Source of the DNA: Patescibacteria group bacterium
GTDB taxonomy: Bacteria > Patescibacteriota > UBA1384 > 2-12-FULL-50-11
Length of the DNA stretch: 64,000 nt
Assembly (NCBI GenBank): GCA_022843855.1
Contig: JALHMV010000002.1
Span: 14,496 to 78,495 of the forward strand
Direction: 5' to 3'
Shown here: in pieces, positions 3,818 to 31,507 of the stretch
How the letters are laid out: each line of letters starts with the position of its first letter
How positions within the stretch are numbered: position 1 is the stretch's first letter
Made by a program: the position numbers and the translations under genes
The notes under the pieces: model-generated
Databases searched by the model: none
The model's input: only the letters and a program-made list of their open reading frames with translations
What the model was told of the DNA's origin: nothing

Positions 3818-3834
3818 TAGAAAGGGGATTGCTT

Positions 3835-4116: not shown

Positions 4117-4155
4117 TCGTTTCGGTTGATCGACATCAAACCGCCCAGACCTAGC

Positions 4156-4804: not shown

Positions 4805-4835
4805 TTGACAGGTATCGCGGGTTCGGCCTTAATAG
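4805..4835 (+). promoter_or_regulatory. Promoter candidate TTGACA-19-TAATAG upstream of the giant beta-helix gene
   Basis: Read directly. The spacing is slightly long. Confidence 0.2.
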
Positions 4836-4858
4836 AAGTATGTCCTCACGCCAAACAA

Positions 4859-7800
4859 ATGGATAAACAGCTACTCAATCGAAAGCGCCTTCGCGTTCTG
4901 GCCGGAGCGGCAGGCGGCGCGTTAGTCGTGATCCTTGTCGCGACCGGGCTATGGTTTCGGGGCGACCAAGAGAACAACAACCTCGCCCAGATCGGAGCCC
5001 CGATCGTCTTTCGAACCAACACTAGCGTTGAGCCAGGTGACACCATCAACGTTATCGGCTCGTTTAACGAGACGGCGCGCGTCTTTTTTCAGGTCATTAC
5101 GAACACCGGTCAGCGAGGGCCTGAACAGAGCTTATCGATCAATAATCAGAGCGGATCGCTTATCCAAGCCGTTCTCCCAGCAGACATTGACGGTTCGTTT
5201 CTTGGCGTGGTCAAGGTAAGGCAAACCGTCGGGTCGGTTGAGAACGTTGAGAGTAACGAACTACTGATCAACGCCCCTCAAGTCAACCACTTTATTACCG
5301 AAGACGTCGCCCCAGGCGAGACGCTTGATATCTTTGGTCGGGATCTCGTTCCCGATCGGGTCAGTACCAAGCGCTTCAGCGCCAGTCGTGTCTATTTTGA
5401 GCGAGACGGGCGACGATACGAAGCGCCGGTCATCAGCGGTGACTGGCTCCACCTTACGGTTCGCGTACCGAACAACCTTCCGCCAGCGAACGACTATCGT
5501 CTGATTATCTCAAACGGTTTGGGCGGCTCGGCAGGAGAAGTGGCAACCACCCGACCGTTATCGGCTGTCCGCGCTGGCACCGATGATAGTCTCGGGCTCG
5601 GAGTCAATTGGGCACGGGAGCTTGATTTTATCAACGATCAGAGTCGAACGATTAACGTCAAGACGGATGGACGCCTCATTGTCAGGGCGATCGGTGACGG
5701 CGTTGCCAACGATCTGCCTGCGTTGCAGGCGGCGATCGATCTTGCGAGCCAACTCGGTGGTGGCGTTGTGTTTGTTCCAGAAGGAACCTATCGTCTTGAT
5801 CTTAACGCCGGTAGTACGATCAGCCTCAAACAACGCGTCGTCGTGCGCGGCAGCGGTAAGGAGAAAACCCGGCTGGTCTACGGCAGCGTCGATCAACCCG
5901 ATAATAAGCGCCTCCTAACCTTCAACCAAGACGCTGATGGCGGACACGCGGGTCTGACAAGTCTGACAATCGAAAACATTAATCACCAAAACCCGAACCC
6001 CGCGCTCCGGGGGCTACCGTGGGCAACCGGCATCGATCTCGGAACCGCTGACTATATCTTTCTGCATCAGGTTCAATATCTGATGGGTAGTAACGACGGG
6101 CTTGGATCTGACTTTGTCAGCCGACTGTTGATTGCTGAGAGCGAATTTATTAATCGCCTCGCGCTCGATCGGAACGTCTTCAATTTTCGTGGCCATATTC
6201 CGCTACAGGCCGTCTCACCAGAACGCCAAAAGAGCGCTGGGCGCTACAACCTCATACGTAACAGCCGATTTGTCTATATCAACGACCGGTTTACCACGCT
6301 CGGTTGGCAAGATAGCGCGCTTATCGGCAACGAAATCACTCGCGATCTTCAGGCAAAGCCCGATCTCCAACGGCACACCGGCTGTTGCAGCGGCGGCTTG
6401 TCGTTCAACTTCAGTAACGATGCGTCGTTTATCGGCAACACCGTTCAGACGATTAACGGCTTCAACCGGCACGGCAATAACGACGGCGAAGGCATCGGCA
6501 GCGAACAGTGGACCGATTATCTCTGGCACCGAGGAACCGTCACGACAGCGACAGCGACGACGCTCGGTGACGCGTCGAGAAAATGGGACACCAGCAATCG
6601 CTGGCCGACGTACAACAACGGCAAAAACTTCGGCCAACCGAAACGAATCGGCACACCCGGATACAATCCGAGCACGGATTACAACAGCGATGGGATCGAC
6701 AGCGATATACCTGCCGATCTCCCGCCCGGTAGTCGGATCGTTCCGTGGGCGCACTACCAACAAGTGATCGTCGCAATTACCGATGGGCATGGCTTCGGCC
6801 AGTGGCGTCGCGTCGTAGGCCATAGTCCAACCGAGCTAACCGTCGACCGGCCGTGGGATGTGATACCTGACAAAACTAGCTCATACAAAGTACTAGTGGC
6901 GACCAATCTCGGTATCACTGTCGCCAATAACCAAGTCCGCGGCAGCGCTGTTGGGATTAATTTCTACGACGGAGTGATCGACTCGCTGATCGCCAATAAC
7001 ACGGTGATTGACGGCGGAGAGATTAGCATCCTGGCCAAAGACCTCCACGGCGGTTACGCGCACAAATCGTGTGACTTTATGGGACACGTTGACGGACCAT
7101 ATTCCCCGCTTCGACAAGCCGGTTTGCGGACCGAACTTGAAAACGTGCCGGCCGCCTACAACGATTGTACGATGCAATCGCTTTCCTGGGACAACGATTT
7201 GATCGGCAACCGAACAGAAAATACTACCGGCCTCTACGTTTCGAGAATCTTTCTCTTGGCGAACAATTTTATCAACGGGAGCGATCACGACGACCAGGAC
7301 TACGTGACCGACTGCAATAGCGACGGGCGCGTTGATTGGGCTGATGTACCGTGCAGCAACGATTATAAAAAGGACCTGCCGGCGCCGTCACACGGAAACG
7401 CGATACTCAATACGACGCTGCGACGTAACACAATCGTCGCTCACCCAACCGCGCTGATGGATAATAACTATCTGCGAAATATTCCGGGGAACGCCGCCAA
7501 GAACGCCGATATCGACTTTGCTTCGCGCGAGCGATTTTATATCGTCGCCGGCGGTTCGGCGCAAGGGATGGTACAAAACGTGCAAGCCGGCGCCAAGCAC
7601 ATCGTCGGGACAGTCCTCGACGACAACGTGATCACCAACTTCAGCGTCTCTGCTGACGACAGTGCCTACAGCTTTTCGCTTGGCACGGCTCAGACCTCCC
7701 TCAAAAGCGACCAACAGCCAGCTCAGTCGTACTGTTACCGAACTAATCTCGGTCGTTCGGACAATCGGGCGTCATCGATTCGATTGATCGTCACCGACCC

Positions 7801-8320
7801 GAGCCGAAAAAACAGTTATTACAAAGTGAGTCAGCCGTTTGTGACCGAATCCAACACGCTCGTTGCAGACGGATCTGGGATAATGATTGAACGCGACCCG
7901 GCGCACAATTTTCGTCTACGCTATCGGTACCAAATTTCCGACCGTCAGGATAACGGGGTCAACTGGTCGTATCAGCGCTGGGTACCTATCAATACTGGCC
8001 AAACGTACGACGTCTGGCAGAAAGTTCCAGGCTTTCTCTCTCGGAAGGTCACCAATGTTAACGCGGCCGAACTGATGGCGCCAGACAACTGTCAGAACAT
8101 CGCCCTGCGCCAGCCGCTCCTCCCCGGCGACTTTGATGGCGATGACAGTATCACCCGCGCCGACACCACGACCCTTATCAGTCAGTATCGTCGGCGCGGC
8201 AGCATCGAAGGTAACCACGTCGTATACAGGACGTACAACGGCCCGCCGACACTGAAAAACGTGGCCGACTTAATCCGTTTCCACAATAATCGCGCAACGG
8301 GCGACTCGTTCGTTCCGTGA
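4859..8320 (+). CDS. Very large secreted/surface protein (1154 aa): N-terminal anchor, right-handed parallel beta-helix (pectate-lyase-like) repeats, dockerin/EF-hand-like calcium-binding segments near the C-terminus
   Basis: ORF 4799..8320; the start is preferred at the ATG at 4859 (MDKQLLNRKRLRVLAGAAGGALVVILVATGLWF, a transmembrane segment). GGGVVFVPEGTYRLD and many NNxVxGS/IGNxI beta-helix repeats. DFDGDDSITRADTTTLISQY and DCNSDGRVDWADV are dockerin-like. Confidence 0.8.
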   Translation: MDKQLLNRKRLRVLAGAAGGALVVILVATGLWFRGDQENNNLAQIGAPIVFRTNTSVEPGDTINVIGSFNETARVFFQVITNTGQRGPEQSLSINNQSGSLIQAVLPADIDGSFLGVVKVRQTVGSVENVESNELLINAPQVNHFITEDVAPGETLDIFGRDLVPDRVSTKRFSASRVYFERDGRRYEAPVISGDWLHLTVRVPNNLPPANDYRLIISNGLGGSAGEVATTRPLSAVRAGTDDSLGLGVNWARELDFINDQSRTINVKTDGRLIVRAIGDGVANDLPALQAAIDLASQLGGGVVFVPEGTYRLDLNAGSTISLKQRVVVRGSGKEKTRLVYGSVDQPDNKRLLTFNQDADGGHAGLTSLTIENINHQNPNPALRGLPWATGIDLGTADYIFLHQVQYLMGSNDGLGSDFVSRLLIAESEFINRLALDRNVFNFRGHIPLQAVSPERQKSAGRYNLIRNSRFVYINDRFTTLGWQDSALIGNEITRDLQAKPDLQRHTGCCSGGLSFNFSNDASFIGNTVQTINGFNRHGNNDGEGIGSEQWTDYLWHRGTVTTATATTLGDASRKWDTSNRWPTYNNGKNFGQPKRIGTPGYNPSTDYNSDGIDSDIPADLPPGSRIVPWAHYQQVIVAITDGHGFGQWRRVVGHSPTELTVDRPWDVIPDKTSSYKVLVATNLGITVANNQVRGSAVGINFYDGVIDSLIANNTVIDGGEISILAKDLHGGYAHKSCDFMGHVDGPYSPLRQAGLRTELENVPAAYNDCTMQSLSWDNDLIGNRTENTTGLYVSRIFLLANNFINGSDHDDQDYVTDCNSDGRVDWADVPCSNDYKKDLPAPSHGNAILNTTLRRNTIVAHPTALMDNNYLRNIPGNAAKNADIDFASRERFYIVAGGSAQGMVQNVQAGAKHIVGTVLDDNVITNFSVSADDSAYSFSLGTAQTSLKSDQQPAQSYCYRTNLGRSDNRASSIRLIVTDPSRKNSYYKVSQPFVTESNTLVADGSGIMIERDPAHNFRLRYRYQISDRQDNGVNWSYQRWVPINTGQTYDVWQKVPGFLSRKVTNVNAAELMAPDNCQNIALRQPLLPGDFDGDDSITRADTTTLISQYRRRGSIEGNHVVYRTYNGPPTLKNVADLIRFHNNRATGDSFVP

Positions 8321-8326
8321 TCGACG

Positions 8327-9409
8327 ATGAAGCGGCTTCGAGGTATCGGTATTGGCCTGCTAATCACGGTCGGGCTTGTTGGTAGCCTCTCGACTGAGCT
8401 GCGCGCCCAACAATCAAACTCCGGCGTCAATCAGACAGACCGGCTGTTCTTTTCGCCCAGCAGCCTCTCGCCTCTGCTTAGTCAACCGAGCACGACAACG
8501 ATCCGCCTCGACAGCGCCCAGGGAGTGAGTATCGTTTCGCTCGTCCTCAACTACCCGGCCGAACGACTGCGAGTGACTGCGGTTGACTTCTCTGGCTCAG
8601 TCTTCGAAGAAGAAGTTGAACCGGTGACTGATACCAACGGCGAACTGCGCTTTAGCCGCGCTACTTTCCAGGAGAATGGCTATCTCGGCGGCGACGGTCT
8701 TGTCGGTCGGATCAGCTTTGAAGCGATAGCGACCGGTGAGAGCTCCGTAACGGTTGCGGTCGATCAGTCAGAAGTGCTCCACTACATTACTGGCGACAAC
8801 GTGCTTGCCTCGGCTGATAGGCTGACGATCGCCGCCCAGGCGAGCGGCCAAAGCGGATCCGGCAATAACCAATCCGGTGGTGGCGGGGGCGCTGGCTCTA
8901 ATCAAAGCTCGAACAAAAAAACCTCAAAGCGCTCATCGACTATCACGCCGATCGAAATACCGCTGCCGCCGAGCGGTCGTTTGAGCGACATTCGGGCAAC
9001 GGTCGACCAGACTGAGGCGACGATCGCCTGGCAGACCAGCGAAGCGTACGGTTACCGCTTGCTGTTTGGGCCGGATCAAACGGACCTGCAGCCGGAGCGA
9101 CGGCTCGAGCAAAAAGTCGCGCTAACCGAGCACTCAGCCCGTCTCAGTCAACTGACCCCGTGCACAACGTATCGTTTCACACTCAATCTCCTCACCGCCG
9201 TTGATTGGAGCGTGATTGACGAGCCGTATCAAGCCAGCTTCCGGACGCTCGGCTGCGACCAATCAGACGACGCCGTGACGTTGCCGGCGATCGATCGAAA
9301 CTCGGACGGACGTCGAACAATGGCTCTATTCTTGCTTGGACTCTTTATCCTGACCGCCACAACGACCTATCTGATGATCCGCCGCCGGCATCGGGGCGTA
9401 GCGCGCTAG
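8327..9409 (+). CDS. Membrane-anchored surface protein: signal peptide, cohesin-like beta-sandwich region, Ser/Gly/Asn-rich linker, FN3-like domain, C-terminal transmembrane anchor with a basic stop-transfer sequence
   Basis: MKRLRGIGIGLLITVGLVGSLS signal. VSLVLNYPAERLRVTAVDFSG...GLVGRISFEAIATGESSVTV resembles cohesin. TEATIAWQTSEAYGYRLLFGP...TPCTTYRF resembles FN3. C-terminus LFLLGLFILTATTTYLMIRRRHRG. Confidence 0.7.
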   Translation: MKRLRGIGIGLLITVGLVGSLSTELRAQQSNSGVNQTDRLFFSPSSLSPLLSQPSTTTIRLDSAQGVSIVSLVLNYPAERLRVTAVDFSGSVFEEEVEPVTDTNGELRFSRATFQENGYLGGDGLVGRISFEAIATGESSVTVAVDQSEVLHYITGDNVLASADRLTIAAQASGQSGSGNNQSGGGGGAGSNQSSNKKTSKRSSTITPIEIPLPPSGRLSDIRATVDQTEATIAWQTSEAYGYRLLFGPDQTDLQPERRLEQKVALTEHSARLSQLTPCTTYRFTLNLLTAVDWSVIDEPYQASFRTLGCDQSDDAVTLPAIDRNSDGRRTMALFLLGLFILTATTTYLMIRRRHRGVAR

Positions 9410-9654
9410 CGAGTCATCGGCTCCAGGCGCTGTTTGATCCGGCTTCCCAGCGTGGGGTGACTGACGCGCTGGACAGCGAGACGAAGACGGCGGCCATCAT
9501 CACTGCGGCCAAGGTCATGGTGGCCAGTCGAGTCGGAGTCTTCATTTTCTTGCCTCGAACCACTACACCGCTTGAGCTCAGCAGTTCAAGCCCACAACAC
9601 ACCCGCTCAGGCACTAGAAGCAAGAGAGAACGCTCTGATTTATTTTATTGGGAA

Positions 9655-9677
9655 AGCCCCCGCCAATCTGGCGGGGG
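9655..9677. terminator. Perfect 10-bp inverted repeat (GCCCCCGCCA atc TGGCGGGGGC) in a 540-bp intergenic region; possible terminator or protein-binding site
   Basis: Read directly. Flanked by A/T-rich sequence on the 5' side. Confidence 0.25.
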
Positions 9678-9949
9678 CATGGGGATGGACTCGGTCCGAT
9701 CAGGACCGGGTCGTGATCGGCTCTTGCTGCCTCGTTGGCAGCCTCAAGATTACACGCGCGGTCCGCGGACCCGCCCGACATCGGGCAAAGTTGTCTGACA
9801 TGATTGTCCTTGATCTTACCGGCACGGTCGCTGGCTAGATCAAGTGAAGAATACCATTTATCTTTGGATTAGTCAACAATTACGAGCACAGTTTTCGCTG
9901 AGTTATTGTGCGACTAGACAACCACCACGGCGCTCGGTAGCCTGAAAGT

Positions 9950-11281
9950 ATGAGCTCGACGCGCCGGATCTTTCTCTTCATCGCCCTGCCGCTGGTAGCG
10001 GTGTTTCTATTGATCGGCTACTTCTGGATAACGGACGTTGACAATAGCGGTCAACGAAAGACCGGCGACGGTCGCACGCAATACACGATCGACTGCCAAC
10101 CGCCCGACGAGCATCAGTGGTACCGCACCGATAATACTTTCCTCATCGATCATAAGAATCCAGACACCCTCTATGTCAGTGTCGAGTGGAAGGGCTTCTT
10201 CAAGTCAGTTGACGGCGGCGAGACCTGGACAAAAGTAGTGAACGGCATCTTCAGCGACCATATTGATAAAGTGACGAAAGAGAACTGCTACGGCGAGTAC
10301 CCAGCGGCGGTTATGGATCCAGAAAATCCCAACAGAATACTGCTAGCTACTTCCGGCTCTCCGGGTACTTTGAAAGACATTAACTCACAAGGCGGTGGCA
10401 TCTACGAAACTACCGACGGCGGCGAGAGTTGGACGCAGAAGATTCGCAACGACATGAACGTCTACTCGACCCGACTCGGGCTCGCGTTTAAACCTGGCGA
10501 CACTCAGACGTACTACTACGGCACCAGCGCTGCGCCGGCATCATATAACGAGGCCGATCAAACTAAGATATTCGTAACGAAAGGGATCATCTATCAGACA
10601 ACCGACAACGGGCAGACATGGACTGAACTTGAAACTGGTTTCATAAAGAACGCCCGACTAATGAGTATCATGGTCCACCCATCTAAGCCGGATACAATCA
10701 CGGCCGCAACAGCGGTCATCAACCGAAATATCGAGGGTCCGAACGATATCGCCGCCCAACAGATGGGTATCATCCAAACCACAGATGGCGGCAAAACGTG
10801 GAAGCGTGTCGACAACCTGCCGGTCGGCTACGAAGGCTCACAAGAAACAAAAGCGGCTCCGTCTAACGGTGACAATATGTTTCATATCCCCATGATCCAA
10901 GGCGACGACAATCTGCCGAAAGCTTTCTACTCACTTGACGGTGGGAAGACGTGGCTGGAGTCAGCTAAACATATGGACTCTGTTTCATACGACCCCCACG
11001 ATCTGAGCGGTAAGCGTCTACTCGGCTACTCTTGGCAGTGTATGGGTGAATGTCAAAAGACGCTCTGGCAAAGTCTCGACGCCGGTAAGTCCTGGCAGTC
11101 GTTCGGAACACTACCCAGCGAGATTAAGAACATCATGGATCAGAAAACTCGTGTACAGAACATCGTCTGGCATCCAACCAACAAGAGTACTTTCTTCATG
11201 ACTGGCGCCGGTGGTTTAGTCTGGAAGACAACTGACAACGGTTCGAGCTGGAACAAACTGCTCGACTACGGTCAATTATAG
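9950..11281 (+). CDS. BNR/Asp-box repeat beta-propeller protein with an N-terminal membrane anchor (paralog of 1444..2763)
   Basis: Asp-boxes SVDGGETW, TTDGGESW, TTDNGQTW, TTDGGKTW, SLDGGKTW, SLDAGKSW, TTDNGSSW. Shares the C-x-P-x-D-x-x-QWYRTD motif with the paralog. Confidence 0.75.
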   Translation: MSSTRRIFLFIALPLVAVFLLIGYFWITDVDNSGQRKTGDGRTQYTIDCQPPDEHQWYRTDNTFLIDHKNPDTLYVSVEWKGFFKSVDGGETWTKVVNGIFSDHIDKVTKENCYGEYPAAVMDPENPNRILLATSGSPGTLKDINSQGGGIYETTDGGESWTQKIRNDMNVYSTRLGLAFKPGDTQTYYYGTSAAPASYNEADQTKIFVTKGIIYQTTDNGQTWTELETGFIKNARLMSIMVHPSKPDTITAATAVINRNIEGPNDIAAQQMGIIQTTDGGKTWKRVDNLPVGYEGSQETKAAPSNGDNMFHIPMIQGDDNLPKAFYSLDGGKTWLESAKHMDSVSYDPHDLSGKRLLGYSWQCMGECQKTLWQSLDAGKSWQSFGTLPSEIKNIMDQKTRVQNIVWHPTNKSTFFMTGAGGLVWKTTDNGSSWNKLLDYGQL

Positions 11282-22574: not shown

Positions 22575-23315
22575 ATGAAAATGTTGAACATGAAAGTTTT
22601 CGTCATCGTCGGCGCGCTCCTGGTGAGCTCGCCGACCTTCGCCCAACAAGTCGAGCGGGAGACCACTCCGCCGGAGACGACCCAATCCGCCGGAGACGGC
22701 GGCAACAACATCGACCAGCTGGGGCAGGACGACGCGACGACAACGTCGCAGTCCGGCCAGGCCGACCACGGCGTGGTTGACCCGCAAACGGGTCACCCGA
22801 CCTTCCCGGTCTCGGACGGGGGAGACCAACTCCCACGGATCGAGCCGCCGACCACATCGGTCGCGACGGTTGGTGGACCGCCGGGTTCGCGTGGCCACAC
22901 CGGTCCACCCGGTCCGGCCGGCCGCTCTGGCCGGGTGACGTACGTCCCGAAAGGGATGGTCACCCACGCCGAGTTGCAAAAGCTGCTCGGCGGGATGGAG
23001 GGTCGGCTGGCACGCCAAATCAGCGCGCTGGCCGCCCAAAACCGCGCCGGATTTGCCCGGGTGGACGGTCGCTTGACAGCGATCGACGCCCGAACAGGCG
23101 AAGTCCTGGCGCGAATCGACCATCTCCCTACGCGGGAGGAAATCGGAGCGCTGCTGCGAACTCCGCAGCCGGCGCCCACCGACCCGGCAAAAAAGCCGTC
23201 CGAGGGCGGAGCAACCCAAAAGGAGCCGACAACGGTCTCACCGATCGCCTGGGCGGTTCTCGCTCTCGGCGGTCTCGCCGTTGTCGGCGCGGCCATAGCC
23301 GCGCCAAGGAAGTGA
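22575..23315 (+). CDS. Secreted protein with a collagen-like G-x-y stretch and a C-terminal transmembrane anchor, in a high-GC islet
   Basis: Signal MKMLNMKVFVIVGALLVSSPTFAQQ. GPPGSRGHTGPPGPAGRSGR. C-terminus AWAVLALGGLAVVGAAIAAPRK. GC is clearly higher than in flanking genes. Confidence 0.6.
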   Translation: MKMLNMKVFVIVGALLVSSPTFAQQVERETTPPETTQSAGDGGNNIDQLGQDDATTTSQSGQADHGVVDPQTGHPTFPVSDGGDQLPRIEPPTTSVATVGGPPGSRGHTGPPGPAGRSGRVTYVPKGMVTHAELQKLLGGMEGRLARQISALAAQNRAGFARVDGRLTAIDARTGEVLARIDHLPTREEIGALLRTPQPAPTDPAKKPSEGGATQKEPTTVSPIAWAVLALGGLAVVGAAIAAPRK

Positions 23316-23322
23316 AAGAAAG

Positions 23323-23436
23323 ATGGAGACTACAGTTCTCATTCTCGGCGGCCTGCTCCTGCTGGCCGCCATCGTCGTCCTAGCCCGTTCGCTTCGGCGG
23401 CGGCCAACAGTCCACCAAGGCTGGTACAGCAGGTAA
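23323..23436 (+). CDS. Candidate 37-aa single-TM peptide (METTVLILGGLLLLAAIVVLARSLRRRPTVHQGWYSR)
   Basis: Starts 8 nt after the upstream stop with a purine-rich spacer. Lies inside the promoter-to-terminator unit. Confidence 0.3.
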   Translation: METTVLILGGLLLLAAIVVLARSLRRRPTVHQGWYSR

Positions 23437-23527
23437 CTGGCCGTCCGGTGATGGCGAGACCGTTGCCGGTGAAAGCGACGGGCAGGCCGTTCGGGTAACC
23501 GAGCGGCTGGAGTCACTCGTCACGGGG

Positions 23528-23767
23528 GTGGCCACCACGGGCGGCCCGGCTCGGATCCGGTGTCGGACCGGCCGGACCGAGGTATTGGTCGAAGTGGGCG
23601 AAGCCGCGCTCAGTCGTCCGACCGGGCCAGCCAGCGCAGGAGGGAACACCGGCCAACAACCGTGGCTGGTCCAGAACTTCTACGGCGGGTGGCCGCCCAC
23701 AAAGCCCGCCGCCGACCCACCGACCACGCCGCCGGTGCCTGAACCGGCCCCGGTTCCGGGCGGCTAG
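23528..23767 (+). CDS. Candidate Pro/Gly-rich ORF (GTG start)
   Basis: The frame is open from 23384. It ends 26 nt before a strong intrinsic terminator. Confidence 0.2.
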   Translation: MATTGGPARIRCRTGRTEVLVEVGEAALSRPTGPASAGGNTGQQPWLVQNFYGGWPPTKPAADPPTTPPVPEPAPVPGG

Positions 23768-23792
23768 ACCCTAGACCGCCGACCCGACATCC

Positions 23793-23827
23793 GCCCCCGA
23801 CACTATCCGTGTCGGGGGCTTTTTCTT
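23793..23827 (+). terminator. Rho-independent terminator (GCCCCCGACAC tatcc GTGTCGGGGGC TTTTTCTT)
   Basis: Perfect 11-bp GC-rich stem followed by a T-run. Read directly. Confidence 0.8.
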
Positions 23828-23829: not shown

Positions 23830-26800
23830 CTACTGCTTCACTAAACCGCTCGAGAGCAACTGGAAAAGCGAAACCTTGATCGACTTTTGCGGACTGATCT
23901 TGAGTGTCAGTGTGCGATCGGTTGTCTGACCGGCGCCATCAACTTCCCGACGATAGTTTTGGATTTCATAGCCGTGACCCAAAAGCGCGTCCTCCGACAG
24001 CTCGTTATCTCTGGCAAGGCCGCGCAAGAGAGTTTGCTGATCTTCGCTTAGTTGGTCGGCGGCCTGAAACGAGATGGTCCGACCAACGTCAAACGCATCC
24101 GGACCGCCGTACTCATTAATCAGATTCTCGAGCGGGCGATCGTCATCCCGGCGCTCGTCCTTAGCGCCAGGGTCAGGTTCGGGAGCCGGTGGAGCGGGCG
24201 GTTCCGGCGAGACAGCCGCCAACCGATCGTTCGCCTCCCGCAAGAATGCCACAACCTGACCAACTGTGAGTGGGTTTCTCTTGGTACCAATGATTGTGCC
24301 GTCGTAATCTTTGTATTTGACCGAGTAACCGCGATCTGACTCGGTAAATTTGAGTGAAGTCGTTACCCCGTCGGGAAAATGTAAATCGATATACTCGGCC
24401 GGCCGGCCGTTCGGATCTTTGTCTCTATCGATAACCACCAGATCGTTGAGGGAATCAGCTCCATCAGCGCCCGCCCATCGCTGGCGCAGCTGCTCAAAAT
24501 ACCGATAGAGCGTTTCGGCTGAGGCGGCGTTAATGCGCTGGCTGAGGATCGAATCGTCCACATCTTGGCCGCTCACAGCCAATTCGATCTGCTGTTGAAT
24601 GTCTGCCTTTTCCTTTTTGTTAGTTGGCTCGGGAGTCGGTGGCCTTTCCTCCTGGTCGGAAGCGCCACTACGCTGACCGACTTCCAGATGGCCGTGCGTC
24701 TTGAGGAAATTGGTGACCGTGTCCCGCTTAACCACGTACGGGCGATCTTTCTCTGAGCCGCTCGCCCGATAGGCGTAGACGATTTGATCGGACTCCGGAT
24801 CGGCCTCCAAGACAAAATCATAGATCCGGCTGCCGTCATCGGCGAGGACGAGGCGATCGCCCGAAGCGGTTCGGCGCGAATAGCCGGGCAGCTGCTGTCG
24901 ATTGAGCGCTTGGGCCAGGGTGGTCGGATCGCGATTCCACCAGTCGGGTTCGCGACCGCCGGGAGTCGACGGCAGGACCATCCCCAATTCTCGAGCGAGC
25001 TTCTCAAGATCGGCGCGGGTATCCCCTGGCTGCTGCTCTTTGGCAGCGGAGCCGACGTCTCCCTCTTTATGGAGTCGCAACGTAACCGCGTGCGCTTCGA
25101 GCGCGTCGATCAGCGGCTTATTGTCGGCCCGCAATTGGTCAGCGGAGATTCGGCGATCAGAATTTATTGTCGTTGCCGCTCCCTCGCTCAGGGCAGTGGC
25201 GGCGGCCATAGTTGCAGTTGTCAACGCGAGATTCTGCCACAATTGTTGTTGGATGAGGGTCGGGAGCGCGTCTGTAGCAGTAGCGATCTCCTTGACATGC
25301 AGAATCGGCCGGTCACCCGAGACAACATCCTCCAAACGGACTCCCGACATTTCCTTTATGTAATTTTGAAAATCGGGGCTAGCGAAGTAGGCTGCTTGAT
25401 CGGCCGGGCTCAGCCCGCTCAGCTCGGGATATTGATTAAGAACCGTCGTTTTGATTTGGTCGATCTGCTGCTCACTGAGATACTGGTGGTAGTGCTCGTG
25501 CCAGTTGTCGCCCAATCGAAGCGCGCTTTCGGTAAACTTAACATCGCCACCGCCGATGATGTCTTTTTGCTCGATGGCGTAGCGCCAAAGTCCGTCGTTG
25601 GTTTGGTAGACCTCGTGACCCAAGCTTGGGTCGCTTTGAAGAAAAAGATTGCCCGCATCGTCATGGTCAACGCGAATACCGTCTTCGCCGGCTCTTCTCA
25701 CGGCCTCGCCCTGAAAAATGCCTTCACTGAAAAACGAGCTAAGAGCCGTGGAGAGCGACGCACCGCCAACAGCCCCGAGGAAGCTGTATATAGCCTTTTT
25801 TTTCTGGTACTTCCGTTCGAGCTGCTGATATTTTACTCGGCGCTCAGACTCGCCCTCTAACCCTTGCTCCTTAGCGACCGCGATCATTAGTAGTTTATTC
25901 ATCGCCGCCGCCCGCTTATCTTGGTCGTCACCGGCCGACTCTAATAGCTGCTTGGCTTCACGCTGCATGAGCAGAACGCGGTAGAGCGCGTCCTCGATCA
26001 CTTTCTGACCGATTTCTTCGTGACCGAGCGCCCGATGACGGAAGTAATCAGCGCCCAACCGACCGAGCGCGCCGCCGACCACGCCGCCAGCCAAACCAAC
26101 CAACGAGATCGGGCCGCCAAGAACACCGATGACACCGACGGTTGCCGCCGAAATCCCGGCTGACACTGCCGTGCGGCGACTAAATATTTCCTTAAGCGCC
26201 GAGTAACGCCGGTCTCGCTCAAGCGTGACGTGCAGCGCCTCGCCGGCTTTTGTATCGGCTGAGATGGCCGAATCAACACGCAACCGGCTCATCGCGGCCT
26301 GAAATGTAGCGAACCCGAGTTGATTAACCACGAGCTCAGCTAATGCAGCGCGCTCGGCGTTGTGAGTAACATCAAGCGCCAGGATCGTCAGTTGTTCGGG
26401 ATCGACTTTCTCGCCGTGACGCAGTCGATCGAGAACCTGGTCGGCAATCAATCGGTAGTCGTTGCTGCGCTCGCGCTCTGCTTCTTGTAAAAGGTTTTGG
26501 AGACGGTCTTTGTCAGCATCCGGCTCGGCCAGCTCGGCCTCAATCTCCTTGATTCTCTGTTCGGTCTCGTCCAGTCGTTGCTGCGCTGCCTCGGCATTCT
26601 CCCGCATAGTATGCCGCTCCTTTTCTTGAACGCCCTTGCGACGCTCGGAGCCGGTCAGTCTCTGCCAAGCGCCGGTTAAAAAACCGAGGCGTTGTTTGGC
26701 CGCAGGCGACTCCGACAGATGATGAGCCGGAGTCTCTTTCTCAGACGAAGTACCTCCCGTAACCCCAGATGTGGGAGCTGACTTTAGCTCCGAATCAACA

Positions 26801-26880
26801 ACACCCTGATCAACGGGTTGTCGTTCAGCAGAAGATTGTGGATCGCTCTCTACTGACCGTGGGGGGCCCTCGCCAGACAT
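23830..26880 (-). CDS. Large (1016 aa) membrane protein of unknown function with two glycine-zipper transmembrane segments
   Basis: Long ORF with a coiled-coil N-terminal third. Transmembrane segments SAGISAATVGVIGVLGGPISLVGLAGGVVGGALG and AIYSFLGAVGGASLSTALSSFF. No recognisable catalytic motifs. Start lies 6 nt after the upstream small gene. Confidence 0.8.
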   Translation of the reverse strand: MSGEGPPRSVESDPQSSAERQPVDQGVVDSELKSAPTSGVTGGTSSEKETPAHHLSESPAAKQRLGFLTGAWQRLTGSERRKGVQEKERHTMRENAEAAQQRLDETEQRIKEIEAELAEPDADKDRLQNLLQEAERERSNDYRLIADQVLDRLRHGEKVDPEQLTILALDVTHNAERAALAELVVNQLGFATFQAAMSRLRVDSAISADTKAGEALHVTLERDRRYSALKEIFSRRTAVSAGISAATVGVIGVLGGPISLVGLAGGVVGGALGRLGADYFRHRALGHEEIGQKVIEDALYRVLLMQREAKQLLESAGDDQDKRAAAMNKLLMIAVAKEQGLEGESERRVKYQQLERKYQKKKAIYSFLGAVGGASLSTALSSFFSEGIFQGEAVRRAGEDGIRVDHDDAGNLFLQSDPSLGHEVYQTNDGLWRYAIEQKDIIGGGDVKFTESALRLGDNWHEHYHQYLSEQQIDQIKTTVLNQYPELSGLSPADQAAYFASPDFQNYIKEMSGVRLEDVVSGDRPILHVKEIATATDALPTLIQQQLWQNLALTTATMAAATALSEGAATTINSDRRISADQLRADNKPLIDALEAHAVTLRLHKEGDVGSAAKEQQPGDTRADLEKLARELGMVLPSTPGGREPDWWNRDPTTLAQALNRQQLPGYSRRTASGDRLVLADDGSRIYDFVLEADPESDQIVYAYRASGSEKDRPYVVKRDTVTNFLKTHGHLEVGQRSGASDQEERPPTPEPTNKKEKADIQQQIELAVSGQDVDDSILSQRINAASAETLYRYFEQLRQRWAGADGADSLNDLVVIDRDKDPNGRPAEYIDLHFPDGVTTSLKFTESDRGYSVKYKDYDGTIIGTKRNPLTVGQVVAFLREANDRLAAVSPEPPAPPAPEPDPGAKDERRDDDRPLENLINEYGGPDAFDVGRTISFQAADQLSEDQQTLLRGLARDNELSEDALLGHGYEIQNYRREVDGAGQTTDRTLTLKISPQKSIKVSLFQLLSSGLVKQ

Positions 26881-26885
26881 GACGA

Positions 26886-27215
26886 TTACGGTTGGTTTTC
26901 GGCCAATTTAATCAACTGGACGACTTCGATCCGGTGCTTGGTCGCCTCCTCGCTGACGATGCGGGGCAGATCGATCTCAGTCTCAACTAGAAAATCAGCT
27001 AGTTTCTGCGGGTCACCAGCTTCGGCAACTCGTTTGAATTCGTCCGCTTCCGTGTCCGATAACAGCTCAGCAACCCGATTGACAACCCGAGCCTCGACGG
27101 TTGTGACCATCGTCTGAATTAGTTGCTGTTTTCGCTCGTCTGAGGCGCCATCGATGTCTAATAGCTCAAAAATATCTTTCTCAAGTATCTCTTCGACCGA
27201 GGGAATAAGGCTCAT
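26886..27215 (-). CDS. Small acidic conserved hypothetical protein (109 aa) co-transcribed with the large membrane protein
   Basis: RBS GAGAGG upstream. Sequence MSLIPSVEEILEKDIFELLDIDGASDERKQQ... resembles a small acidic protein family recalled from Patescibacteria-type genomes (from memory only). Confidence 0.6.
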   Translation of the reverse strand: MSLIPSVEEILEKDIFELLDIDGASDERKQQLIQTMVTTVEARVVNRVAELLSDTEADEFKRVAEAGDPQKLADFLVETEIDLPRIVSEEATKHRIEVVQLIKLAENQP

Positions 27216-27222
27216 CCTCTCA

Positions 27223-27251
27223 AAGATAAGCTCTCAGTTAGAGGACGTCAA
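27223..27251 (-). promoter_or_regulatory. Promoter candidate TTGACG-17-TATCTT (minus strand) for the small-acidic/large-membrane gene pair
   Basis: Read directly. Confidence 0.25.
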
Positions 27252-27265
27252 CCTGAGAATTGGGA

Positions 27266-27293
27266 AAGAAAAAAGCGGCTGGGATACGCCGCT
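27266..27293 (-). terminator. Intrinsic terminator overlapping the sigma-factor stop (AGCGGC gtatccca GCCGCT TTTTTTCTTT on the minus strand)
   Basis: Read directly. Confidence 0.55.
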
Positions 27294-27958
27294 TATTGAT
27301 CGTCATGCAGTTGGGTTGCTTCGTCGGCCAGTCTTTTGAAGAGACGCTCCAGTTTGTTGTTCATCGCTTGTCGAGAGACGCCACGCTTGGCGGCGAGCTC
27401 AGCAACCGACTGGCCCGATCCACTCTCAAGACCAAATCTGTCAATGATTAACTGCCGCTCTTCTGTTTCAAGAGTCGCTAGTAGCTGGGAAACAAGTAGG
27501 CGATCGAGCGACGGGACATGAGTTGGGTCTCTATCAATCAGACTGTCGCCCACCGTCACAACCCGACCATTACCACCAACAACCGGTTGCTCAAACGACA
27601 TATTCAGATGAGGAGGGATGACGCTTTTGCGGCAAGCGTGGCGAATGAGACGAGCACACTGCCATCTCATTTGCGTGATGACAAAGCTTCGCCAGGACAT
27701 CCCACGATTCGGCTCATAGGCCCGGAAAGCAGCGACCACAACCGGTCGGAGCAGCTGCTCCCAGTTCAGCCGATCTTCCGAGGAGAGAAGCGGGAACATC
27801 TGAGCAAGGGTCACTTGGACATATCGCTCGGCATCGGCGACAACCTGTTCTTCTATGCTCATGCGCTCGACTGCCGAAGTGGCGGGGTCACGATGCCGGC
27901 GCAGCCGGACTTCAAAGTCATCCGGATTCTTCTTCAAGGTGCGCTCCAGATACCGCAT
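27293..27958 (-). CDS. Sigma-70 family RNA polymerase sigma factor (group 3, FliA/WhiG-like; regions 2 and 4)
   Basis: Region 2.2-like YEPNRGMSWRSFVITQMRWQCARLIR. Region 4 HTH LETEERQLIIDRFGL...SVAELAAKRGVSRQAMNNKLERL. The ORF extends to 27985; the ATG at 27958 is preferred. Confidence 0.7.
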   Translation of the reverse strand: MRYLERTLKKNPDDFEVRLRRHRDPATSAVERMSIEEQVVADAERYVQVTLAQMFPLLSSEDRLNWEQLLRPVVVAAFRAYEPNRGMSWRSFVITQMRWQCARLIRHACRKSVIPPHLNMSFEQPVVGGNGRVVTVGDSLIDRDPTHVPSLDRLLVSQLLATLETEERQLIIDRFGLESGSGQSVAELAAKRGVSRQAMNNKLERLFKRLADEATQLHDDQ

Positions 27959-28036
27959 CGTACTCGAAACAACGACGAAAAACAATCAGCAGCCGATTAT
28001 CGCCGGCGGAGACTGGGCAGCCGGATTAATAGTACG

Positions 28037-29149
28037 TTAGCTGAGGTAGTCCTTGAGGCGCGATGACTCTTCGTGTTTTTTGAGCTTCTGCAACGCTTTG
28101 GCTTCGATTTGCCGAATACGCTCGCGGGTAACGCCGAATTCTTTTCCAACTTCTTCGAGCGTGTGGGTCTTGCCGCCGTCGTCCAGACCAAAGCGCATCC
28201 GCAAGATCTTCTGCTCCCGGGGCGTCAGGATCGCCAGCGAATCCTGAACATGACCCTTCATGAGCTGGTAGATCGCCTGCTCCTCGGGCGACATCTGCTG
28301 TTTGTCTTCGATAAATTCACCGAGTGTTGAGTCGTTTTCCTCGCCAACCGGCGCCTCAAGCGAGACGATGTCCTGCGAAATCTTCATGATGTGTTCCAGC
28401 TTTTCGACTTCGATACCAAGCTTCTTAGCCAGCTCCTCGTAGGACGGCTCGCGGCCGAGCTCTTGTTGAAGCTCACGCTGAACGCGCATGTAACGGTTAA
28501 TCGTCTCAACCATATGAACCGGGATACGAATAACACGAGCCTGGTCAGCGATTGCGCGCGTAATCGCCTGCCGGATCCACCACGTCGCGTAGGTCGAGAA
28601 CTTAAAGCCTTTTTTATAATCAAATTTTTCGACAGCGCGCTGTAAGCCCAGATTGCCTTCCTGGACCAAGTCCAAGAGCGTCAGGCCCCGACCGATATAT
28701 TTTTTGGCGATCGAAACCACCAGGCGTAAGTTGGCTTCCGTGAGCCGGCGTTTAGCTGCTTTGTCGCCGCGTTCGATTCTTTTTGCTAACCGCACTTCTT
28801 CGCTTGAAGATAGGAGCGGGTACTGTCCGATCTCGCGCAAGTACATCCGGACCGAGTCGTCCGACATGCCTGTCAGATCGTCATCCTTGTCGGGCTTCTT
28901 TTTCATGTCTTCTTCGCTCGGGATTTCGAGAAGCGGTTTGGCGTCACGAATCTCGACACCAATCTGACCGAGGTACTTGGTAAACGAGTCGATCATCTCC
29001 AGATCCTCTTCCGGCTCCGGATAGGCTTGGATAATCTCTTTATACGTTACAAAACCGTGCTGCCGACCCTTGCGGATCAGATACATGAGTTCTTCCGGGA
29101 AACTTACCCCGGCGTCTTGTTTCAGTTTCTTGGGAACTGCTTTTGCCAT
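28037..29149 (-). CDS. rpoD: RNA polymerase primary sigma factor RpoD
   Basis: Regions 1.2 through 4 are strongly conserved ([64 protein letters not shown]). RBS AAAGGAG. Confidence 0.95.
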
Positions 29150-29270: not shown

Positions 29271-31013
29271 TCATCCTCGCTCCTTCGCAAGTTTGCTTAA
29301 TTCTTGCATTAGTTGTTTGACTTGGTTGATATCGCCTTTTTCCTGAGCGCGCCGAATATCCTGAGCGAGCGCTTCCTTGCGACGCTCGTAGCCCTTCGTC
29401 GCGAGTTGACCGAGTTTTTCGCGAAGCAATTCGCCCATGAGTTCGTCAGATATTTCTCCCCACTGATTGGAGAGCCAAAATTGCCACGAGTCGATCTTCT
29501 CACTTACACGTGAGTCAAGGTTGGTTTTTACCTGCGAAAGGAAGACAGACGGCGTTTTCGTCAAGGTCTTGTCAGTATACGCTTTTTTAACCTCGTCGGC
29601 AATCCGGCTAGCCTGTTCACTTTGCCAGACTACCTGCTCAAATTCCGGCTTCATTTTGACCGCGATATCTGGCCGAGCTAAAACGGCGGCAAGAAGCTGC
29701 TCCTCGTTCGTTAGATTTTGAACAGGTACCCGCTCCGGTTGAGTCCCTTGTGATTTTGAGTGAGCAGCAAGACCGGCTTTCTCAAGAGCAGCGTACACCG
29801 CATCATTTTTGACCCCGATCGATAACGCGAGACGCTGCACGTAGTGATCGAGTCGGGTCGGCTCAGTCACCAGCTGCAAGATCGGCAACATCGCTTTTAC
29901 CACTTTCTTTTTATTCTCAATGAACTGGAGGTCTCCAGCGGCTGCGACCTCTTGGCTGATCCACCACTCCAAGCCTTCCTTCGCTTGCTTAACACGCTCG
30001 GGCCAGGCCTTCGGATCCTTTTCCAAGAGCTCACCAGCGTCTTTGGCGCCGGCAAAATCAACAACCTTAACGTTGAGATCAAATCTCAGAAGCGCCTCGA
30101 TCACCTTTTTCGTCGTTGCAACCCCAGCCGAGTCAGCATCAAACGCCAGCAAAAAATTTGTTGTGTACTTCGAGAGAATTAGTAGTTGGGCGTCGGTAAT
30201 GGCTGTTCCCGAACTGGCTACCGCCTGGGTTGCCCCCGCTTGATGGAGCGCGACCACATCCATCTGGCCCTCAACGAGCACGACGTAATCGCGCTCTTTG
30301 ATGCCGGCCTTGGCAAAGTTCAGTCCGTAGATCGTCCTACTCTTGCTAAAAAGCGGGCTGTCGGGTGAGTTGAGGTACTTTGGCTGCGTGTCACCGAGGA
30401 CGCGCCCGGTAAAAGCGATCGTGTGGCCGAGCACATCTTGGATCGGAAACATAATTCGATCAAAGAACTTGTCCGGTGAGCCAGCTTTGACGATATCGGC
30501 AGCGCTAAAACCACGCTTGAGAAGGAAATCGCGCAAACTGAACGTACGCGGGACAAAACCAATGCCAAACTGTTTGATTGTTTCTTCGCTTAAGCCACGC
30601 TTCTTAAGATACTCAAGCGCAGTTTTAGCGACCGGCTGCTCGAGTAGTATCTTCTGAAAAACTTTCGCAGCTAGATTATTGATGCCGTAGAGCGTCTCTT
30701 TTTTGTCGCGAGTTTGGTGTTCGGCCTGGGTCCGCGGCTGAAGCGTCACGCCGGCTTTTTGAGCAAGGAGTCGCAAGGCATCGCCAAACTCGAGGTGCTC
30801 GGCTTCCATGATAAATTTGAAGTGGTCGCCGCCACGGCCGCAGCCAAAGCACTTCCAAATCTGCTTCTGGGGGCTGACCATCATTGACGGGGTTTTTTCC
30901 TGATGGAACGGACAAACGCACTTGTAGTTGGCGCCAGCTTTTTTGAGCGTGACGTACTGACCGATCAGATCCGTCAGATCCAGGCGCGATTTTACTTCTT
31001 CGACTTCGTTCAT
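29271..31013 (-). CDS. dnaG: DNA primase DnaG
   Basis: CHC2 zinc finger CPFHQEKTPSMMV...CFGCGRGGD and the TOPRIM motif LVEGQMDVVAL. The start is placed at the internal ATG (MNEVEEVKSRLDLTDLIGQYV); the ORF-track start at 31124 adds a non-conserved extension. Confidence 0.9.
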   Translation of the reverse strand: MNEVEEVKSRLDLTDLIGQYVTLKKAGANYKCVCPFHQEKTPSMMVSPQKQIWKCFGCGRGGDHFKFIMEAEHLEFGDALRLLAQKAGVTLQPRTQAEHQTRDKKETLYGINNLAAKVFQKILLEQPVAKTALEYLKKRGLSEETIKQFGIGFVPRTFSLRDFLLKRGFSAADIVKAGSPDKFFDRIMFPIQDVLGHTIAFTGRVLGDTQPKYLNSPDSPLFSKSRTIYGLNFAKAGIKERDYVVLVEGQMDVVALHQAGATQAVASSGTAITDAQLLILSKYTTNFLLAFDADSAGVATTKKVIEALLRFDLNVKVVDFAGAKDAGELLEKDPKAWPERVKQAKEGLEWWISQEVAAAGDLQFIENKKKVVKAMLPILQLVTEPTRLDHYVQRLALSIGVKNDAVYAALEKAGLAAHSKSQGTQPERVPVQNLTNEEQLLAAVLARPDIAVKMKPEFEQVVWQSEQASRIADEVKKAYTDKTLTKTPSVFLSQVKTNLDSRVSEKIDSWQFWLSNQWGEISDELMGELLREKLGQLATKGYERRKEALAQDIRRAQEKGDINQVKQLMQELSKLAKERG

Positions 31014-31067
31014 GGGTTGGATGAGTGAATTTAACCTTAAAAGCAGGTAGAATACAAAGGACTTTTT

Positions 31068-31216
31068 GGAAGAGTCGCCTTGATGGTCTATGTGAAGCCA
31101 GCTCCGCTGGCGGAAGAGGGCCACTTGGCAAAATGGAAGAGTCGCCTAGTGGCCTATCTTGAGCTTTGCGAAAGAAGGCCAGTTGGCAAAATGGAAGAGT
31201 CGCCTAGTGGCCTATG
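31068..31216 (+). repeat. Three tandem copies, increasingly degenerate upstream, of the 5' end of tRNA-Ser (GGAAGAGTCGCCTAGTGGCCTAT and flank) with a period of about 59-66 bp. The last copy is the real gene start
   Basis: The 38-nt blocks 31120-31157 and 31178-31215 match at 37 of 38 positions. A weaker copy lies at 31068-31091. Confidence 0.85.
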
Positions 31217-31279
31217 GCGCCGCCTTGGAAAGGCGGTTTACCCTCACGGGTATCGTGGGTTCAAATCCCACCTCTTCCG
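31193..31279 (+). tRNA. tRNA-Ser(GGA), type II with a long variable arm; CCA not encoded
   Basis: Acceptor GGAAGAG/CTCTTCC, anticodon loop TTGGAAA, variable stem-loop ACCC..GGGT, T-arm GTGGG TTCAAAT CCCAC, discriminator G. Confidence 0.85.
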
Positions 31280-31473
31280 CAGTACAAGGCAACTGCTCCC
31301 CGCACTTCTAGGATTCGTCCAGCGTGCCCGTTTCTCCCGTTGGTCGAAATCGTGGGTTCAAATCCCACCTCTTCCGCAGTACAAGGCAACTGCTCCCCGC
31401 ACTTCTAGGATTCGTCCAGCGTGCCCGTTTCTCCCGTTGGTCGAAATCGTGGGTTCAAATCCCACCTCTTCCG
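31280..31473 (+). repeat. Two identical 97-bp tandem units, each ending with the 3'-terminal 28 nt of tRNA-Ser (ATCGTGGGTTCAAATCCCACCTCTTCCG)
   Basis: 31280-31376 and 31377-31473 are identical. Each is an 69-nt spacer plus the tRNA 3' fragment. Confidence 0.95.
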
Positions 31474-31507
31474 CGATATTGGTAGACTAACAAGAGAAGG
31501 AGAAGGA

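Follow-up and report, generated by a model that had tools for sequence, protein, structure and literature searches.

The DNA analysed here, a 64-kb window of contig JALHMV010000002.1 from an ultra-small Patescibacteria group bacterium whose genome the analysis places in Candidatus Saccharimonadales, carries behind dnaG and rpoD a sigma-70-family gene, a gene for a small acidic protein of 109 aa that belongs to the family DUF5663, and a gene for a 1016-aa glycine-zipper membrane protein. Comparison with related loci has shown that the real unit, as far as gene order and sequence define it, is a two-gene cassette specific to Saccharimonadia/Patescibacteria, namely the DUF5663 gene and the large gene, and not a three-gene module. 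Coordinates are positions within the window, genes were taken from a scan for open reading frames (ORFs), and the whole module lies on the minus strand.

The conserved unit is a pair of genes

The DUF5663 gene (26886..27215) is the upstream partner of the pair and the large gene (23830..26880) the downstream partner. A sequence-only reading of this DNA had described three minus-strand ORFs after dnaG-rpoD, one of 1016 aa, one of 109 aa and one for a sigma-like protein, and all of them were recovered as described in the ORF scan. The tight adjacency that it gave for the small and large genes also stands, but the large gene starts 5 nt, not 6 nt, past the DUF5663 stop.

The loci collected for comparison number 21 and represent 13 distinct genomic places besides the window, or 14 with it. 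A DUF5663 gene lies directly 5′ of the large-family member, on the same strand, in 14/14 distinct loci. The profile search of six-frame ORFs found exactly one DUF5663 ORF upstream of exactly one large-family ORF in each locus searched; in the most distant relative, a 114-aa DUF5663 gene without a precomputed Pfam match was recovered in this way. The same order was found by tblastn in a further locus (L021). The junction between the two genes measures −8 to +14 nt where measured and is often a TAATG overlap. Judged from order and junctions, the two genes are a strictly co-inherited and translationally coupled unit. The idea that the small-plus-giant gene pair is a genuine, uncharacterised membrane-associated module is borne out by this adjacency. 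Co-occurrence of the three genes in related genomes had been named beforehand as the check on which the proposal would stand or fall; what recurs is the pair of two genes, and the three-gene module does not hold.

In eight loci, including the window, the order is dnaG-rpoD-DUF5663-large, and rpoD of the relatives is 81–84% identical to that of the window. Both dnaG (29271..31124, −; Pfam Zn_ribbon_DnaG, DNAG_N and Toprim) and rpoD (28037..29149, −; Pfam regions 1.1–4 and NCBIfam RpoD), which encode DNA primase and the primary sigma factor, are context genes outside the module. In the seven relatives that share this context, DUF5663 lies directly 3′ of rpoD, with a spacing of 39–85 nt where measured. 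No other gene of the neighbourhood evolves nearly as fast as the large gene, for its product is only 25–32% identical to those of six relatives, compared with 82–84% for rpoD, 62–65% for dnaG, 65–76% for lysS and 53–69% for DUF5663.

Such a constant position could mean that the pair is co-transcribed with dnaG-rpoD in a housekeeping role, tethering the replication/transcription machinery or a chaperone to the membrane. No terminator was called in the 39–85 nt behind rpoD in the measured relatives, one family member contains a GrpE domain, and DUF5663 is core and partly essential in Southlakia, all of which would fit such a role. However, the rpoD context is limited to one subclade, deeper relatives of the pair are found in contexts of type IV coupling protein (T4CP), VirB4 or AAA ATPase genes, and dnaG-rpoD of Southlakia is not trailed by the pair. 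In the window, transcription coming from upstream would meet a terminator before it reached the pair, and the extreme divergence of the large protein is unlike that of housekeeping proteins. We regard the housekeeping role as highly improbable.

The sigma-70-family gene is an orphan

The gene between rpoD and the pair spans 27293..27958 (−; 221 aa from an ATG, which is the gene call in the database) or extends to 27985 (the 230-aa ORF from a TTG). The best match of its product is phrog_351 'RNA polymerase sigma factor' in PHROGs (E = 3.3e-12, residues 76–215). TIGR02937 in NCBIfam (E = 3.4e-5, residues 84–221 of the 230-aa ORF) and Sigma70_r4 in Pfam (E = 8e-4) were matched below cut-off, and regions 2.2–2.4 and 4 align weakly to RpoS. 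Region 2 and region 4, by which the sigma-70 family was judged, are both present in the 221-aa protein; on these alignments the gene is a genuine but divergent member of the family. The protein is nearest to phage-encoded phrog_351 and to region 4 of extracytoplasmic function (ECF)/group 3 factors, yet it differs from the known family in scoring below every curated Pfam and NCBIfam cut-off. The FliA/WhiG-like assignment once proposed for it has to be given up: no FliA/WhiG model occurs among its 21 NCBIfam matches, which are headed by ECF, SigE/K and SigB/F/G region 4, and no flagellar genes were found within the window.

No homolog of the sigma-like protein was found among 5.8 billion proteins. 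Searches with tblastn were negative in all 21 related loci and gave no match in 50,697 phage records. Several sources for the gene were considered. A recent duplication of rpoD was ruled out. Orthology to a Sigma70_r4/HARE-HTH protein encoded in the T4CP clusters of distant relatives was rejected, for the region 4 match is weak (E = 0.008) and the architecture differs. A phage or mobile origin is unproven: besides the negative phage search, there is no compositional anomaly (the GC content of the gene is 0.551, the same as that of the window) and no repeats were found flanking it.

The sequence-only reading had suggested that this gene may be a second sigma factor dedicated to the pair. On such a model it would transcribe the pair from the promoter-like site TTGACG-17-TATCTT and form with it a three-gene envelope regulon. 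The gene does belong to the sigma-70 family, it is adjacent to the pair on the same strand, a terminator isolates it while the promoter-like element precedes the pair, and the cluster of the distant relatives holds its unrelated Sigma70_r4/HARE-HTH protein. A dedicated sigma factor is nevertheless unsupported, because the relatives have DUF5663 right behind rpoD without the sigma gene; 0/13 of the other distinct pair loci carry it, and the relatives that keep the pair after rpoD have −10-like elements of their own. The promoter-like site is of the housekeeping type and not above chance, and the HARE-HTH protein, with its different architecture and weak region 4 match, lends little to the idea. 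A sigma regulon of this kind is hardly credible.

In locus L001 the junction between rpoD and DUF5663 is occupied instead by a 294-aa coiled-coil gene that is unrelated and runs on the other strand (L001 1850–2734, −). The junction has been interrupted twice independently, by the sigma gene in the window (27216–28036) and by this 294-aa gene in L001; it may be an insertion hot spot. As judged from the comparison of loci, the sigma gene is best described as a lineage-specific insertion at the rpoD/DUF5663 junction that has its own terminator and is no conserved regulator of the pair.

Terminator and promoter-like elements

The intrinsic terminator that had been placed across the stop codon of the sigma gene is well founded. 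The terminator-like hairpin and U-run occupy 27263..27294 (−); the 7-bp hairpin at 27294..27273 folds stably (−12.3 kcal/mol, z = −5.1), with the U-run after it. The promoter-like TTGACG-17-TATCTT is likewise present 5′ of the DUF5663 gene (27223..27251, −; read as 27251..27223, 9/12 match), but it is statistically unremarkable, with 5 such sites in the region against 2.7 ± 2.0 in shuffled sequences. The element resembles the housekeeping sigma-70 consensus and not an alternative-sigma motif. Its −10 part ends 7 nt ahead of the DUF5663 ATG. Transcription starting from this element would thus leave the mRNA practically without a leader, and the GAGAGG that had been named as the ribosome-binding site would not be part of it; the two assignments contradict each other. 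In the last ~110 nt examined before the DUF5663 ATG of loci L005, L007, L011 and L013, an extended −10-like TGCTAC(A/G)(G/A)T or TGCTAGTAT lies about 6–21 nt before the ATG; for the TGCTAC form the distance is about 10–21 nt. The arrangement suggests that the pair is transcribed from a promoter of its own, with little or no leader, also where it lies directly behind rpoD.

The DUF5663 protein

The 109-aa protein is acidic, as had been described (pI 4.35, 25 D/E versus 12 K/R). By direct hmmscan it scores 19 bits against PF18908 (E = 0.0022), below the gathering score of 23.7. Its membership in DUF5663 is accepted on transitive evidence: PF18908.7 is precomputed for the database entry identical to it (P0003) and for each of 10 homologs, which are 65–75% identical, and the genes of relatives are listed as DUF5663 in tables of gene context. 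The homologs are named from 'Candidatus Saccharimonadales' or 'Patescibacteria group' metagenome-assembled genomes (MAGs), and PF18908 is a Patescibacteria-enriched Pfam domain of unknown function (DUF) to which the 109-aa protein and all its homologs belong. The AlphaFold2 (AF2) model, built on an 11-sequence alignment, is all-helical with mainly four helices (pLDDT 86.6). The protein has no signal peptide, its model gave no significant Foldseek match in the PDB (E < 0.001), and the profile search of PDB sequences was empty.

Two DUF5663 paralogs of Southlakia epibionticum, SEML1_0162 and SEML1_0163, are classed as 'core' and 'Patescibacteria-enriched' (PMC10633639, Tables S1 and S2). SEML1_0162 is essential by transposon sequencing (Tn-seq) (PMC10633639), and SEML1_0163 has chaperone-like fold matches, to the trigger factor C-terminal domain and to LTXXQ/Spy-like proteins (PMC10633639, Table S2). 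The Southlakia copies differ from that of the window in that they are 142–144 aa long and lie behind a 767-aa hypothetical gene, not before a glycine-zipper protein.

The large protein: family, fold and conserved islands

The large protein belongs to a family with 29 representatives in 1.84 billion proteins, found by an exhaustive phmmer search of cluster representatives, with the matches concentrated at query residues about 100–470. The exhaustive HMMER search was needed, as a word-indexed homolog search retrieved only the protein itself and one partial relative. In the scan of the genome collection, the alignment of the large protein offered no stretch conserved enough, and scans with the DUF5663 alignment yielded few loci. 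The family members that have been named by their sources are all 'hypothetical protein' except one, which is called GrpE.

The claim that the protein has no known family held throughout the sequence, profile and structure searches. No match was found in Pfam, NCBIfam, PHROGs, PADLOC, PDB sequences or the PDB profile search. Its AF2 model (29-sequence alignment, pLDDT 71) found nothing at E < 0.001 by Foldseek against the PDB and BFVD, the top matches being long helical proteins and uninformative. Pfam gave only sporadic matches on all 29 members. A phage tail tape-measure protein was considered and set aside, with no PHROGs match, a best BFVD tape-measure match at E about 0.5, and housekeeping genes as neighbours. 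PADLOC assigned 0 anti-phage defence families to all four proteins. The features of polymorphic toxins and effectors were also looked for: a conserved N-terminal module and a variable C-terminus were seen, no toxin domain was found, and the gene downstream of the large gene, where an immunity gene would be sought, is a convergent collagen-like gene or small unknown genes.

From the N-terminus, the AF2 model begins with a disordered segment (residues 1–58), followed by a coiled-coil hairpin that is predicted to be cytoplasmic (residues 59–154; 26419..26706, −; helices 60–117 and 124–154, pLDDT about 87–95). The first conserved island is a helical domain with the pattern GE..L..DL...E.SALAE..L...GFKTFQ (residues 155–205; 26266..26418, −; AF2 helices 161–200), which shows 37% mean identity to the query over 28 homologs at 99.9% occupancy. 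The second is a Gly-rich transmembrane (TM) hairpin of two arms and a GGP turn (residues 236–280; 26041..26175, −), which lies within the AF2 helical hairpin 227–287, with 41% mean identity to the query and a Kyte-Doolittle peak of 2.0. A third hydrophobic segment, AGLG..GAVGG (residues 363–386; 25723..25794, −), lies within long helices that run through residue 400. It is followed by the third island, a small beta domain in a predicted outside loop (residues 401–445; 25546..25680, −; AF2 strands 402–436, pLDDT about 80–85), with 38% mean identity. H422 in this domain is invariant, and W432 and D440 are nearly so. A catalytic site made of H406/D407/H422/D440 was dropped as a candidate, as conservation across the whole family extends only to H422, W432 and D440, and several members have lost the HD pair. 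The fourth, weakly hydrophobic segment (residues 548–568; 25177..25239, −; AF2 helices 535–572) is rich in Gly and Ala and has an equivalent position in most members. It is followed by the last island, the conserved helix LRxxNxPLIxxLEA (residues 576–602, 33% mean identity), with which the variable C-terminal region begins (residues 576–1016; 23833..25155, −); alpha/beta domains are modelled there by AF2 at 666–734, 815–892 and 917–1010, with a Pro-rich linker between. Outside the four islands (155–205, 236–280, 401–445 and 576–602) the identity within the family is only 8–16%; besides the islands, only the third and fourth hydrophobic segments count among the conserved parts.

Glycine-zipper segments are thus present as had been noticed, but two TM segments are too few: the first of them is a two-armed hairpin, and the segments at 363–386 and 548–568 add a third and a fourth. 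The strict motif GxxxGxxxG occurs in the second arm of the hairpin in 22/29 members and almost nowhere else in these ~1000-aa proteins; the window protein has two interleaved copies, at residues 262 and 265. The zipper is taken as a conserved feature and not as chance because the motif is confined to this one arm in 22 members.

Glycine zippers occur in membrane proteins such as the MscL and VacA channels and those of the GlsB/YeaQ/YmgE type, and are over-represented in channel formers, among them MscL, VacA and KcsA. A homo-oligomeric channel or pore of glycine-zipper helices, as hinted at in the sequence-only reading and here taken to be gated by the cytoplasmic domains, would agree with the conserved motif in the second hairpin arm and with the Gly/Ala-rich composition of the third and fourth segments. 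However, tight packing of helices is all that the motif shows, and such motifs are also common in membrane proteins that are not channels. No homology or fold match to any channel was found by PDB profile search or Foldseek, and no conserved polar or charged lining was seen except one Glu at the end of segment 4. What the large protein has in common with MscL, VacA and GlsB/YeaQ/YmgE is GxxxGxxxG in a TM helix, with no relationship of sequence or fold, and unlike those proteins it has its zipper in a hairpin inside a 1000-aa multidomain protein. We consider a channel an unlikely account of the protein.

Predicted topology and variable C-terminal modules

The mean net charge of the 15-residue flanks, taken over the 29 members, is +2.4 before TM1, +2.8 after TM2, +2.9 before TM3, −0.7 after TM3, −1.3 before segment 4 and +1.1 after it. 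The flank charges follow the positive-inside pattern and so point to a protein with the N-terminus inside, four predicted spans and a loop of ~160 aa outside that would contain the beta domain.

The C-terminal region can hold recognisable domains in other members. P0035 has a full GrpE domain (residues 1290–1451) at 41.9 bits versus the gathering score of 25.8, and P0021 (residues 666–770; also L010 5686–8841) and P0023 (residues 623–839) have PP2C/PP2C_2 above the cut-offs. With GrpE in one member and PP2C in two, the comparison shows that the C-terminal region is modular. Because relatives carry GrpE or PP2C there, and in view of the charge distribution, the variable C-terminal region is predicted to be cytoplasmic, as these features together suggest. 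The proposal that the remaining 650 aa are an envelope or extracellular part is accordingly doubtful, as both lines of evidence put most of it in the cytoplasm. The three relatives share the logic of a membrane anchor plus a cytoplasmic output with SpoIIE-type membrane PP2C phosphatases and membrane-tethered DnaK co-factors. The likeness ends there: the window protein is without PP2C or GrpE, the membrane modules show no relationship, and partner-switching genes are missing from the neighbourhood.

Gene neighbourhoods and type IV ATPases

Outside the rpoD clade the pair occurs in different company. In L014/L015, L018 and L019 it is followed by 2–4 small genes, a T4CP-like ATPase, a Sigma70_r4+HARE-HTH gene and a second T4CP-like ATPase. 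The T4CP-like ATPase of the L014, L018 and L019 clusters contains DUF8128 with TrwB/TraG-D/T4SS-DNA_transf, and the genes of the clusters are on one strand, with gaps of 12–107 nt in L018 and up to about 460 nt in L019. The T4CP-HARE-HTH-T4CP clusters lie at 11606–16755 in L014, 6578–13565 in L018 and 9113–13549 in L019, and the HARE-HTH protein has 366–384 aa. A T4CP-like gene lies directly behind the pair in L016. In L017 the pair is divergent from a cluster of VirB4-like, TraC-like, PrgI and amidase genes, and in L010 an AAA ATPase gene is upstream of the pair. In all, ATPases of type IV secretion systems (T4SSs) neighbour the pair in 5/6 loci outside the rpoD clade; within ±5–10 kb, this T4CP association is absent from the rpoD-context clade, that is, from the window and its 7 close relatives.

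Patescibacteria have about two VirD4-like genes per genome, mostly apart from virB4 (PMC12102498). The T4SS of Saccharibacteria is essential and may export proteins (PMC10633639). Southlakia shows the same T4CP/HARE-HTH adjacency (SEML1_0293, SEML1_0294), and the HARE-HTH gene 0294 is essential, whereas the T4CP homolog SEML1_0293 is non-essential (PMC10633639). The distant pairs resemble these VirD4-like T4CP clusters and T4SSs similar to mating pair formation (MPF)-FATA systems (PMC12102498; PMC10633639) in sitting operon-like with T4CP-like ATPases. The difference is that neither protein of the pair resembles the described T4SS subunits by Pfam, NCBIfam, PDB profile or Foldseek, and no T4SS-subunit family (VirB3/4/6/8, PrgH/I/L, TraG, T4CP) was found among the 29 family members.

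In the rpoD clade, a convergent gene for a collagen-like secreted/TM protein and then lysS lie downstream of the pair in the window and in L002, L005, L011 and L013. In L001 a Cu-oxidase_4 gene and lysS replace the collagen-like arrangement, and the contig of L007 stops at the large gene. The collagen-like architecture adjoins the pair in L002, L005, L011, L013 and L014. In the window this recurring neighbour lies at 22575..23767 (+). Its signal peptide, GPPGSRGHTGPPGPAGRSGR, and TM segment are followed by a stop at 23315, where the relatives continue into a Pro-rich tail; the Pro-rich tail of the window is in another frame (23528..23767, '...QNFYGGWPP...PVPGG'), and a TM-like mini-ORF is in the third frame (about 23323–23436). 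From these frames the collagen-like gene (22575–23793, +) appears to be a pseudogene broken by frameshifts or else misassembled; the GC content of the stretch is 63–67%. The large gene and the collagen-like gene converge on a GC-rich 11-bp hairpin (23793..23819, +), which folds at −25 to −26 kcal/mol (z about −6) and has a T-run on the + strand only.

A model of the pair and its weighing

The evidence can be combined in one reading, in which the large protein stays in its own cell as a modular scaffold or signalling protein anchored in the membrane, DUF5663 is its cytoplasmic partner, and the pair has a functional link, at least in its ancestry, to the VirD4-like ATPase cluster. We hold this composite to be an even call; more of our weight within it falls on the definition of the module and on the topology, and less on the role. 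The steps would be as follows. The large protein would cross the membrane of its own cell four times, its N-terminus lying inside, and the glycine-zipper helices would drive tight packing or oligomerisation there. On the outside, the loop of ~160 aa with its His/Trp/Asp beta domain could serve for contact or sensing. The cytoplasm would hold the N-terminal coiled coil and the 440 variable residues of the C-terminal region, where the exchangeable C-terminal modules, alpha/beta domains in the window and PP2C or GrpE in relatives, would be the output or recruitment part. DUF5663, produced in step, would bind the cytoplasmic portion of the large protein and act as its partner or chaperone. A Patescibacteria cluster of VirD4-like coupling-protein ATPases may have been the ancestral neighbourhood. 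In the clade of the window the pair would then have moved to the 3′ side of dnaG-rpoD, where it has its own promoter-like element. The sigma gene, inserted at the rpoD/DUF5663 junction in the window genome only, brought its own terminator.

Several observations weigh against this composite. No T4SS gene was found within the window, the T4CP link rests on 4–5 loci, and the non-essential SEML1_0293 of Southlakia is a further point on the same side (PMC10633639). The four segments are Gly/Ala-rich and marginally hydrophobic; position-independent ΔGapp sums, calculated with Hessa-scale values, range from +0.7 to +6 kcal/mol. Given this marginal hydrophobicity, it is uncertain whether all four spans would insert stably. 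PP2C or GrpE is present in 3/29 members only, and the C-terminal domains of the window protein itself matched no family, Pfam giving neither PP2C nor GrpE.

Alternatively, the large protein could be a secreted or translocated effector, or a translocon for a host membrane, which passes through a T4SS or VirD4-like ATPases and has DUF5663 as its chaperone. The chaperone would keep the weakly hydrophobic zipper segments from the producer's own membrane. The operon-like adjacency to T4CP-like ATPases (L014, L016, L018, L019) and the VirB4/PrgI cluster of L017 would be explained, as would the marginal hydrophobicity of all segments, the conserved N-terminal and variable C-terminal modules, and the very fast divergence, which is typical of host-interface proteins. 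Secreted membrane effectors, for instance the chlamydial Inc proteins, likewise combine a bilobed hairpin, a coiled coil and reduced hydrophobicity. The partner is small, acidic and helical, and a DUF5663 paralog has chaperone-like fold matches (PMC10633639, Table S2). However, the positive-inside pattern fits insertion into the cell's own membrane, no secretion signal is recognisable, no T4SS genes are nearby in the clade of the window, and no immunity-like gene follows the large gene. Modules such as GrpE and PP2C are found more typically in proteins that stay and work in the cytoplasm, and the non-essentiality of the Southlakia T4CP homolog again tells against export. The effector reading is in our estimate improbable. 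Its more specific form, that the pair is a chaperone and substrate of the Patescibacteria T4SS/VirD4-like ATPases and that the large protein would form a host-membrane translocon or conduit at the epibiont-host interface, is more improbable still.

Other features of the window

Elsewhere in the window, the tRNA-Ser(GGA) gene at 31193–31280 (+) is embedded in exact tandem repeats (31110–31474). A 97-nt unit occurs twice, at 31252–31348 and 31349–31445, with 100% identity, plus a third partial copy, and the 29-nt 3′ end of the tRNA is therefore present three times. The 5′ half of the tRNA is duplicated too (31110–31157 versus 31168–31215, 94%). The repeats are either an att-site-like duplication or an artefact of MAG assembly. 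At 877–1097 a split tRNA gene (847–1143, +) is interrupted by a group I intron (Rfam RF00028, 66.5 bits). When the flanks of the intron are joined, ARAGORN identifies a tRNA, whose 5′ exon starts with GGAGTAGCTCAGCGG and whose 3′ exon ends with GGTTCGAATCCGACCTCCGGAGCCA; which anticodon results is set by the exact point of splicing. Several genes in a row at 1444–11281 (+) encode proteins that are probably secreted or at the surface. They include two BNR/Sortilin-Vps10 repeat proteins (1444–2763 and 9950–11281, +), a 1173-aa protein with a pectate-lyase-like domain (4799–8320, +) and a protein with weak, sub-threshold fn3 matches (8327–9409, +).

Implications

Neither protein of the pair is relatable to a characterised family or fold by the searches used. 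The small protein belongs to a known DUF and the large family is unnamed; the apparent novelty is one by absent annotation, which is common in the candidate phyla radiation (CPR). The literature searched held no description of the pairing of DUF5663 with the large protein, of DUF5663, of DUF8128 or of Patescibacteria glycine zippers. A large part of bacterial diversity belongs to the Patescibacteria, which live as epibionts and whose lineage-specific proteins mostly lack an explanation. Our study redefines a three-gene 'module' as a two-gene cassette that is the sole invariant unit across very different neighbourhoods. It also provides a topology model, conserved islands for mutation and a comparative lead to VirD4-like ATPases, and it removes a misleading regulatory hypothesis. 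If the pair were indeed a T4SS substrate with its chaperone, it would represent the first class of substrates to be identified for the essential, functionally unexplained type IV system of the CPR, and the fast evolution of the large protein would reflect host specificity.

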